From positions 15,624,001 through 15,688,000 of the forward strand of contig OZ336895.1 in assembly GCA_965287045.1 (NCBI GenBank): a stretch of DNA of 64,000 nucleotides, given 5' to 3'. The stretch comes from Carcharhinus amblyrhynchos. Its lineage: Eukaryota. This document shows, one piece after another, positions 18,380 through 60,260 of this stretch. Within the stretch, counting starts at the first letter, position 1; every line of letters starts with the position of its first letter. A model generated the notes under the pieces. That model saw only the letters and a list, made by a program, of their open reading frames with translations, searched no databases and had not been told where the DNA came from. The position numbers were made by a program, and so were the translations under genes.

Positions 18380-19120
18380 TCCTCAACCAAGAGGACGAAG
18401 AAGATTAAAATTCAGGAAGCGTAGTGGAGGATATGCCCCTGTCTACATCAATGGGGACAAAGTAGAAATAGTCGAGAGCTTCAGGTTTTTAGGTGTCTAG
18501 ATCGCCAAAACCTGTCCTGGTCCCCCCATGCTGACACTATAGTTAAGAAAGCCCACCAACACCTCTACTTTCTCAGAAGACTAAAGAAATTTGGCAAGTC
18601 CGCTACAGCTCTCACCAACATTCACAGATGCACCATAGAAAGCATTCTTTCTGGTTGTATCACAGCTCGGTGCGGTTCCTGTTCTGCCCAAGACCACAAG
18701 AAACTATAAAAGGTCGTGAATGTAGCCCAATCCATCATGCAAACCAGCCTCCCATCCATTGATTCTGTCTGCACTTTCCACTGCCTCGGCAAAGCTGCCA
18801 GCATAATTAAAGACTCCACACACCTTGGACATTCTCTCTTCCACTTTTTTCCATCGGGAAAACAATATCAAAGTCTGAAGTCATGGACTGCCTCAAAAAC
18901 AGCTTCTTCCCTGCTGCAATCAACTATTGGATAGTTTGGACAATCTCGCATTAAGTTGATCTTTCTCTGCACCCTAGCTATGACTGTAAAACTACATTCT
19001 GCACCCTCTCTTTTCCTTCCCTATGAACGGTATGCTTTGACTGTATAGCCTACAAGAAACAATATTTTTCACTGTGTACCAATACGTGTGCCAATAATAA
19101 ATCAAATCTGATCAAATCTG
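18380..19120 (+). mobile_element. Rex1/Babar-like LINE 3' end
   Basis: It translates as VKKAHQHLYFLRRLKKFG...ESILSGCIT...VAQSIMQTSLPSIDS and ends in an AAATC tail. Confidence 0.85.
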
Positions 19121-27346: not shown

Positions 27347-27580
27347 GATGTGGAGATGCCACTGTGGGGTAAACACAGTAAGAAGTCTCACAACACCAGG
27401 TTAAAGTCCAACAGGTTTATTTGGTAGCAAAAGCCACAAGCTTTCGGAGCACTGCTCCTTCGTCAGGTAAGTGGGAGTTCTGTTCACAAACAGAGCACAT
27501 AAAGACACAAACTCAATTTACAAAATAATGGTTGAAATACAAATCTTTATAGATAATCAAGCCTTAAAGGTGCAGACAAT
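27347..27580 (-). mobile_element. Penelope-like element terminal (pLTR) fragment
   Basis: It is the reverse complement of the 3' part of the GIY-YIG-bearing element at 59473-59975. Confidence 0.85.
27434..27470 (-). ncRNA. Minimal type-I hammerhead ribozyme motif
   Basis: The minus strand reads UUAC-CUGACGA-A-GGAGC-AGU-GCUCC-GAAA-GC-UU-GUGG. Confidence 0.75.
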
Positions 27581-33902: not shown

Positions 33903-33907
33903 CTCCA

Positions 33908-34245
33908 AAGATGCGCAGGTTAGATGGATTGGCCATGCTAAGTTGCCCTTTGGTGTCCCAAGATGTGCAATTTAAATGGATTGGTCATGCTAAGTTGCCC
34001 TTTAGTGTCCCAAGATGTGCAGATTAGGTAGATTGACCGCGCCAACTTGCTCCTTAGTGTCCTAAGATGTGCAGGTTAGGTGGATTAGCCTTGCTAAATT
34101 GCCCCTTAATGTCCCAAGACATGCAGGTTGGATTGCTTGGCCATGGTAAGTTGCCCCTTAGTGTGCCAAGATGTGTAGGTTAGGTTGCTTGGCCATGCTA
34201 AATTGCCAATTAAGGTCCCAGGATGTGTAGGCTGGATGGATTAGT
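33908..34245 (+). repeat. 6.5 x 52-bp tandem expansion of the HE1 internal unit
   Basis: Units start at 33908, 33960, 34012, 34064, 34116, 34168 and 34220. Confidence 0.95.
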
Positions 34246-34794
34246 AACTCAGCATTAAAAAGTGGAAGAGAAAATGCCTGAGGTGCATGGGGTCCTTAAT
34301 TATGCTGGCTGCTTTGCCAAGGCAGTGGGAAGTATAGACAGAGATGAGAGGCTGGAAAGTTATTGTTAAATTTACTTCTGCCATCAATTCTGGCAATGCA
34401 TTTTGGAACATAACTTTTGGTGTAAAAAAGATTCTCCTCATCTCAATTCTGGTTGTTGTGTTAATGTCTTTAAATCTGTATCCTTTGTTACCAAGGCATC
34501 TGCCAATGCAACACTGCAAACAAGGAACAAATAAGTATTAAAATCCTTCATGATTTTGTACACCTCTCATAAATCACCCTTAATCGTCCCCGCTCAGAGG
34601 AGAATAACCCTAGCTTCTCCAGTTCTTTCATGGAACATTGATTGCTATGGTCTTCACATTAACTGCAATACATTTGGGGTTAGAGTTTCCTCTCATTTAA
34701 GCCAGTATTATCTGTGCAATCTGATGGAGCTGGTTAAGCCGGCACAGGAGATTGGAGAGCCTTAAACACATTTGAGTTAAACTCAAAGCAAGGT

Positions 34795-58905: not shown

Positions 58906-59472
58906 TAACATTTTGGGTATCTCATCGAAGAACAAGGCCATGATTGCAGCAGTCCTCTCAAGAGCAATGTTCCTGAGTATGTGGACACTCCTCAAGCAAA
59001 GGTGACTTCACTGGTTCAGGCACATTCACAGGATGGAAGCTCGCTTTCTATATGCCAAGCAGGTGACTAGCAGCACTTTCAAATCTCCACTTCAAGGATG
59101 CTTGCGAGTGTGACCCAATTCTCACATCTGGGACACATTAATGGATGGCAGAGGAAAATGGAGGCATGACATATGGGCTGGCATGTGCCCCCATGATGCT
59201 CAGTGGCCACAGCAGCTTGGCAACATGCAGTAACACTGAAAACAACAACCCATACTGACTCCTGATCTCATTCATGGCACTTGTTGCTGAACTTGCCTCT
59301 CATGGATTGGTCTCTCTACCCATCAGCAAATGTACATGACATGAAGCTACAACATTTCCAGTGGATTTGAATTGCTGTTTGTTGACCATCTTACGTAGAT
59401 GGAAGGGTGCTGATGACAGTCACATTATACTGAAAGGTTCAAATCTCACACTAGAATGGAGAATGCTTACCC

Positions 59473-59975
59473 GACTGTTCCCTTCCTGTTGGCGAACACT
59501 TCAGTGGTCACGGGCATTCAGCCTCTGACCTTCAGGTAAGCATTCTCTAAGGCGGCCTTCATGACACACGACAGCGCAGAGTCGCTGAACAGAGACTGAT
59601 AGCCAAGTTCCGCACACATGAGGACGGTCTCAACAGGGATCTTGGGTTCATGTCGCACTATCTGTAACCCCCGTGACTTGCCTGGGTTTGCAAAACCTCA
59701 CTTACTGTACTGTCTGGAGACAATACACATCTCTTTAAACTGTGATCAGTGCTCCTTCCACTCATATTATCAGCCACTTCAGGTCTTGAACAGCAGGTTA
59801 GGTGTAAAGATTCGCATTCTAATCAGTAATCTCTAAACTGTCTGTGCTTTATATGCTCTGTCTGAGGCCAGAATTCTCCATTCACCTGACGAAGAGGGTG
59901 TCCCTCGAAAGCTTGTGAGTATATTATCAAATAAATAGGTTGGACTAAAACCTGGTGTTGTCAGACTTTTTACTG
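59473..59975 (+). mobile_element. Penelope-like element 3' end: GIY-YIG endonuclease C-terminus plus pLTR
   Basis: 59473-59667 translates DCSLPVGEHFSGHGHSASDLQVSIL*GGLHDTRQRRVAEQRLIAKFRTHEDGLNRDLGFMSHYL*, with the HF..H, R..E..I and GLN motifs of PLE GIY-YIG domains. Confidence 0.88.
59881..59920 (+). ncRNA. Minimal type-I hammerhead ribozyme motif
   Basis: UUCAC-CUGACGA-A-GAGGG-UGU-CCCUC-GAAA-GC-UU-GUGAG. Confidence 0.75.
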
Positions 59976-60260
59976 TGTGCACAAGAGGACACAGGTTTAA
60001 GGTGCTTGGGAATTGGTACAGAGGAAATGTCAGGGGTAAGTTTTTCAGTCAGAGAGTGGTGGGTGCATGGAATGGGCTGCCAGCGACAGTGGTGGAGGTG
60101 GATTTGATAGGGTCTTTTAAGAGACTTTTAGATAAGTACACGGGACTTAGTAAGATAGAGAGTTATAGGTAAGCCTAGTAATCGCTGAGGTAGGGACATG
60201 TTCGGAACAACTTTGTAGGCTGAAGGGCCTGTATTGTGCTGTAGTTTTTCTATGTTTCTA
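59976..60260 (+). mobile_element. CR1 LINE 3' end
   Basis: Translates TRGHRFKV...FFSQRVVGAWNGLP. Confidence 0.9.

Follow-up and report, generated by a model that had tools for sequence, protein, structure and literature searches.

By its sequence features, a motif in the 64,000-nt stretch of Carcharhinus amblyrhynchos DNA analyzed here (the window) is a minimal type-I hammerhead ribozyme in the pLTR of a Penelope-like element (PLE). Our preferred account, which we consider likely, is that this hammerhead sits at the 5′ end of the element RNA, cleaves slowly and only as a dimer, probably with the help of protein, has been selected in the source elements, was mostly uncut when the RNA was copied, and lies idle in the copy found here. 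The copy comprises the following features, given in window coordinates together with one relative from an older lineage:

59473–59978, +: 5′-truncated, tail-less, solo fragment of a young Penelope-like element, 506 bp, delimited by comparison with genomic copies
59457–59472, −: inverted 16-nt piece copied from the element, at the 5′ junction, recognized by its match to the unit
59473–59667, +: last 64 codons of the frame for RT plus GIY-YIG, with a premature stop at 59548–59550, from comparison with intact relatives
59848–59885, +: candidate pLTR promoter, a TATA-like run about 30 nt before an initiator-like site at the stem I start (both labels by resemblance to consensus sequences)
59880–59920, +: whole minimal type-I hammerhead motif, from sequence, fold, exact copies and covariation
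59881–59885, +: stem I 5′ strand UUCAC, partner GUGAG at 59915–59919; A59880-U59920 can add a pair
59886–59893, +: core C3-A9, CUGACGA (59886–59892), and an unpaired extra A (59893), from sequence
59894–59906, +: stem II, GAGGG (59894–59898) with CCCUC (59902–59906), loop UGU, from sequence, variants and covariation
59907–59914, +: GAAA (59907–59910), the AGCU palindrome in place of helix III (59910–59913) and H17 (59914), from sequence
27355–27580 (approximate), −: Penelope-like end of an older lineage, carrying a separate hammerhead with an intact core (27442–27466), from sequence

A first-pass annotation of the window had described stem I, the core, the extra A, stem II, the GAAA and the AGCU, all of which match base for base, and had placed the predicted cut where we also read it from the sequence, between 59914 and 59915, after H17 (U59914, triplet CUU). 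The copy possesses the complete core (C3 U4 G5 A6 N7 G8 A9 / G12 A13 A14 A15.1 / U16.1 H17), G10.1-C11.1 in helix II with the extra base between positions 9 and 10.1, and a short helix I of 5–6 bp by sequence and fold, with AGCU standing in for helix III; every sequence feature of the class named in the annotation, a minimal type-I hammerhead in a Penelope-like pLTR, is present. The minimum free energy fold of the motif contains stems I and II, and on its own is weak evidence, with z = −1.76 and 11 of 200 shuffles equally good. The annotation had also proposed a check against hammerhead models, and here an Rfam search of 9 kb and of 221 bases around the motif returned no hammerhead match at E ≤ 10, a miss that would be expected because helix III is absent. 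With a loose core pattern, the window yields 11 matches where 5.3 are expected, and just two of them, at 59886–59910 (+) and 27442–27466 (−), are followed by an AGCU palindrome and a paired stem II. The nearest other motif in the window thus lies 32 kb away on the opposite strand, leaving no partner in cis; the older-lineage copy there keeps most of its tail.

Across the genome, the exact 39-mer 59881–59919 occurs in 905 copies, compared with none for a reversed control, and the core pattern in 67,374 places, compared with 16 for the reversed pattern, so the motif did not arise by chance. For the young family, to which the window copy belongs, we counted at least 9,194 exactly flanked ribozymes along with 14,112 copies of a downstream anchor, and the anchor of an older lineage occurs 20,112 times. 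At C11:58609769-58609948, the 3′ part of the ribozyme region is repeated in a short tandem array, seen as four matches spaced 49 bp apart.

The long copies of the family consist of 3026-bp units in tandem, each bearing one ribozyme, and intact units contain an open frame of 893 aa encoding RT and GIY-YIG. The ATG of this frame coincides with the 3′ terminus of the element, 96 nt after the predicted cut. Against Pfam, the frame matches RVT_1 (E 1.4e-9) and, at its C-terminus, GIY-YIG weakly, below the cut-off (E 0.002); a PDB search with the element ORF gave no matches. The single ORF with RT and C-terminal GIY-YIG and the tandem units that form pLTRs are the hallmarks of EN+ PLEs, and the optional 30–40-nt tail, the inverted 5′-truncated copy and the target site duplication (TSD) are all found in the family. 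A C-x4-C-x2-C linker precedes the endonuclease in the family frames. Since the CX2-5CxxC linker is described as missing from Penelope/Poseidon (PMC8557442), its presence points to the Neptune clade, a name drawn from the linker. Four full-length elements (L067, L068, L069 and L070) carry the 893-aa frame uninterrupted, and the two tandem units of L067 are 99.9% identical, suggesting that the family is probably still, or was very recently, active.

The fragment in the window is 97–99% identical to other genomic copies among 40 of 2330 candidates scored, reaching 99% with its nearest relatives, and is recognized as truncated because other copies extend further at both ends. The first-pass annotation had placed the motif about 210 nt after a GIY-YIG stop codon: a frame stop does lie at 59665–59667, 213 nt upstream of stem I, but of the frame it closes the copy keeps just the last 64 codons, which lack the GIY and YIG motifs and are interrupted at 59548–59550 by a premature stop absent from all 29 copies compared. 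A fixed-length non-autonomous element was considered, as all matches began at one query position, and rejected, as copies extend from 0 to at least 1500 nt upstream of it. The 3′ end of the copy, at −33, belongs to the tail-less class. At the 5′ junction, the 16-nt filler has no counterpart among 2000 random 30-nt window pieces, none of which matches the unit over 15 nt or more. The copy is a solo arm with neither an inverted partner arm nor a TSD, and a displaced TSD sought near its 5′ junction was not found; the locus has likely lost target DNA or a partner arm.

The copy sits between an old repeat and the truncated 3′ end of another repeat, presumably a CR1-type LINE. The old repeat family at 58910–59420 is 67–84% identical to 39 other places scored. 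Among 150 of the 178 frames of at least 72 aa, a scan that short exons escape, no host exon was seen at the locus, and the one match above the cut-off lies far from it. A frame at 18425–18706 (+) matches Pfam ALKBH8_N (E 2.9e-9) and is, we assume, probably a LINE-derived remnant. At 33903–34267, a 52-bp unit taken from a common short interspersed repeat's body is repeated in tandem six to seven times.

Conservation of the motif can be read between lineages and not within the young family, for which the sample was 152 copies partly chosen on the motif (20 regions were picked for the exact motif). No shared variant occurs in the core of 132 young-family copies; with shared variants at 0 of 16 core and 25 of 538 other positions, conservation cannot be measured within a family this young. 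Stem II and its loop are the most variable part, with shared variants at 11 of 14 positions compared with 25 of 538 elsewhere (Fisher 6e-12, a value inflated by indels that span several columns), and the nine stem II types seen at least three times among 118 copies can all pair. Shared variants have either U or A at position H17. Set against the majority sequence of 19 older-scoring copies retrieved with a downstream anchor, the window lineage differs at 0 of 16 core and 14 of 60 flank positions (Fisher p 0.033). Two of the 19 rows are young copies that are truncated, and three of the 14 differing flank positions hold letters fixed by the search pattern. Core conservation relative to the flanks, part of what the first-pass annotation had put forward as a check, is seen across lineages and not inside the young family.

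Covariation adds to this. On 30 aligned copies, 87.7% of stem cells pair, compared with 81.2 ± 1.0 after shuffling (0 of 500 shuffles as high) and 22–58% in a slid-register control, and 25 cells are changed on both sides compared with 7.3 in shuffles, which ignore relatedness; six rows are gapped in the stem I 3′ strand by misalignment. Four of the five stem II pairs change on both sides. In stem I, 86% of cells are paired, with the inner three pairs kept across lineages and the outer pairs weaker. A subfamily change breaks the A-U pair adjoining the cut (stem I pair 2) in 16 of 100 among the matches listed, and the same broken pair is present in the intact tandem elements L067 and L069, suggesting that stem I is not strictly guarded. 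Because the core is unchanged across lineages and stem II covaries, we conclude from these alignments that core and stem II are under selection in the source lineages. This says nothing about the window copy, whose motif is intact because the copy is young (99% identity to its nearest relatives).

The competence of this motif is predicted to depend on a second molecule, as A15.1 and U16.1 are just 2 nt apart and helix III could form solely between two RNAs. Nearest-neighbor energies, which leave out core and tertiary contacts, give −22.9 kcal/mol for the double hammerhead, −25.4 for two monomers, −25.5 for a register with A14-U17 paired and −31.3 for the best dimer, which is non-catalytic, so that by these estimates the active dimer would be disfavored in naked RNA. 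Stem II has a pairing probability of at least 0.92 in every context tested, and stem I one above 0.8 locally and of 0.35–0.41 in the whole fragment. A schistosome motif is inactive as a monomer and has low activity as a dimer (Cervera and De la Pena 2014, PMC4209133), and vertebrate retrozyme motifs are reported to need dimers (PMC7229834; bioRxiv 10.64898/2026.07.22.740005). The hammerhead of an anole element cleaves only with protein and is dispensable for insertion in vitro, and RNA-seq showed no ends at its cut site (Frangieh et al. 2024, PMC11167929). The predicted poor dimer agrees with both the low dimer activity and the protein-dependent cleavage. The suggestion in the first-pass annotation that the window copy may still be catalytically competent if transcribed on the + strand therefore lacks support, the copy being solo, its dimer predicted unfavorable, and a second ribozyme and probably protein being needed. 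With its frame prematurely stopped as well, this copy is likely carried along idle in a single truncated insertion. As to transcription, promoters have been described in PLE pLTRs (PMC3846280, PMC6765202). We guessed 18 of 23 listed runs to be RNA, all in the form of contigs, which cannot show where transcripts begin or end, and in contigs of four such runs coverage of the intact element resembles the genomic copy profile.

Whether the templates of insertion were cut can be read from the ends of the insertions. The 3′ ends are bimodal: among 141, 72 lie at the terminus and 69 at −24 to −43, with none between, resembling the two reverse-transcription start sites of the anole element (PMC11167929). 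As both start sites lie 3′ of the cut, ribozyme-bearing copies were read across it. Cut templates would give arms starting at the 59915-equivalent, and none of 94 arms does so (arms from the first 17 Mb of C1, located by a downstream anchor; those of one insertion are not independent), which argues that the copied RNAs were uncut. A foreign base just before the cut occurs in at most 67 of 14,112 anchored copies (half-detection), and one position earlier in 108 of them (three-quarter detection), both counts including point mutations. Instead, a 30-nt stretch around the stem I start holds the beginnings of 35 of the 94 arms (1.1–1.2 per nt, compared with 0.1–0.4 beside it), about 30 nt behind the TATA-like run. 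Our reading of this cluster is that reverse transcription ran off the 5′ end of an uncut RNA beginning at the ribozyme, the alternative being stalling at the folded motif. Ends free of the cut site would also be expected if cleavage were followed by ligation, or if cut RNAs were lost.

Seven perfect palindromic insertions are centered on the predicted cut. We considered them as a footprint of cleavage and rejected this, since 63 of 283 short junctions center on the longer AGCU palindrome; self-complementary sites explain those at the cut. Among the matches listed, 25 of 50 AGCU-centered junctions have the broken-stem-I subfamily on both sides, compared with 16 of 100 copies listed that belong to this subfamily.

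Insertions of the family are mostly two-armed. Of 139 resolved arms, 112 are in head-to-head pairs, 7 are tandem and 20 are solo, and 81 of 84 head-to-head pairs combine a tailed arm with a tail-less one. The rule becomes strict for pairs flanked by a TSD of at least 10 bp (72 of 72, including 36 of 36 in newly fetched loci); the TSD of the family is about 12 bp. The one-sided tail and inverted copy have been described before (PMC3846280, PMC8557442), and what is added here to this qualitatively known layout is the quantified one-tail rule. The two arms share their stem II type in 59 of 63 pairs; in the flank-selected subset, random pairing would give about 14%. At two loci (L122 and L172), two or more linked sites assign the two arms within one TSD to different subfamilies, which hints at two templates and could also come from gene conversion. 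Three further loci (L119, L168 and L186) have arms of different subfamily types, with no TSD found.

In the account we favor, the motif of a source element, located 96 nt before the ATG, would likely lie at the very 5′ end of the RNA transcribed from the pLTR promoter, and would cut after U59914 solely when two copies pair through AGCU. Cleavage would likely be slow and likely aided by the element's own protein, and, since reverse transcription used uncut RNAs, it would come late or play a minor part. The window copy would have arisen when reverse transcription that began at the proximal (tail-less) start site passed through the ribozyme and halted after about 500 nt; it may then have been joined to the target via the short templated filler, and would have acquired its premature stop since.

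Other accounts assign the motif a different role. The window copy might be transcribed on the + strand, from its own pLTR promoter or within a host RNA, and cut in trans with any of its thousands of sister copies, trimming a host or read-through transcript. Its core and both stems are intact, stem II pairs firmly in every context, the candidate promoter is kept and family-like sequence appears in contigs of the runs guessed to be RNA. Nonetheless, we regard this as very unlikely, since the copy has no partner in cis, its stem I pairs poorly in the whole fragment, the scanned frames (with short exons escaping) include no host exon, and monomers are reported to be inactive (PMC4209133). At the level of the element, tandem ribozymes could excise a 3026-nt unit RNA that is ligated into a circle and copied repeatedly, as modeled in PMC4209133, with the window copy as a truncated product. 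The spacing of ribozymes one unit apart in tandem copies and the reading of insertions across the cut site, as a ligated circle allows, are consistent with such a circle. It is nevertheless improbable, as the clustering of 35 of 94 arm 5′ ends at the stem I start fits a linear RNA and is not predicted for a circle, and as unprocessed RNA is reported to be the main substrate in the anole system (PMC11167929).

A further possibility is that the AGCU palindrome serves to pair two template RNAs, with a dimeric RT-endonuclease priming both ends of one staggered cut and cleavage being secondary. Copying of one RNA would begin at the tail end and that of its partner 35 nt upstream, each into one side of a 12-bp staggered cut, with no hammerhead cleavage before copying is complete; we hold both the pairing role and this sequence of events to be unlikely. 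They are favored by the one tailed and one tail-less arm of all 72 TSD-flanked head-to-head pairs, the arms of different subfamilies in 2 of 63 two-ribozyme pairs (L122 and L172), the centering of 63 of 283 short junctions on the palindrome, and the anole protein, which extends both strands and is predicted to be dimeric (PMC11167929). However, 59 of 63 pairs share their stem II type and some share private changes, so one RNA or source locus suffices, and the palindrome-centered junctions are explicable by DNA microhomology. Moreover, it is the catalytic core that is conserved, yet pairing needs no core, and clades without canonical hammerheads are described as inserting alike (PMC8557442). 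A slow, dimer-dependent ribozyme that is mostly uncut at the time of copying thus remains the account we prefer.

The window locus itself matters little, being one of 905 identical motifs of a class already published (PMC4209133). The family, with its young, intact 893-aa elements and tens of thousands of ends, is useful for the question of what PLE hammerheads do, a function called unclear in PMC8557442. Its insertion ends indicate uncut copied RNAs and a strict one-tail rule for two-armed insertions, and its thousands of young two-armed insertions with subfamily-marked arms make the two-RNA model of Penelope integration directly testable. A literature search, with most subscription papers and all supplements outside its reach, found no paper on this family. 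In the text consulted, PMC4209133 names no cartilaginous fishes, though the species lists in its supplement may include them, and a preprint from 2026 describes retrozymes with hammerheads in one cartilaginous fish.

With the PLE minimal hammerheads of PMC4209133 the motif shares the type-I layout without helix III and with palindromic 15.2–16.2, the extra base between 9 and 10.1 with G10.1-C11.1, and the occurrence in thousands of mostly single copies, with opposite-strand pairs and high variability within a genome. Its stem II has 5 bp, compared with 7–8 bp in schistosome families and 4 in canonical motifs (PMC4209133), and its copies (67,374 core-type matches) are far more numerous than those reported there. 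Animal non-LTR retrozymes carry a type-I hammerhead of PLE origin as well (PMC7229834; bioRxiv 10.64898/2026.07.22.740005), but they are short tandem arrays with at least two ribozyme units, whereas the window locus holds a single ribozyme behind coding remains. The inverted 5′-truncated copy, one-sided tail and TSD are shared with the complex insertions of EN+ PLEs (Arkhipova et al. 2013, PMC3846280; Craig et al. 2021, PMC8557442), from which the window copy departs in belonging to the minority of solo arms (20 of 139) and in lacking both a partner arm and a TSD. The linker of the family likewise sets it apart from Penelope/Poseidon, described as lacking one (PMC8557442). The closest mechanistic parallel is the anole Poseidon element PAc (PMC11167929), with which the family shares tandem units, a hammerhead where pLTR and ORF meet, a pair of reverse-transcription start sites delimiting an optional 30–40-nt tail, and an absence of ends at the cut, in RNA and DNA for PAc and in DNA, the kind examined, for the family. 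In PAc, both the cut (26 nt in) and the tail fall within the ORF, whereas in the family of the window copy the cut falls 96 nt before the ATG, on which the tail ends.
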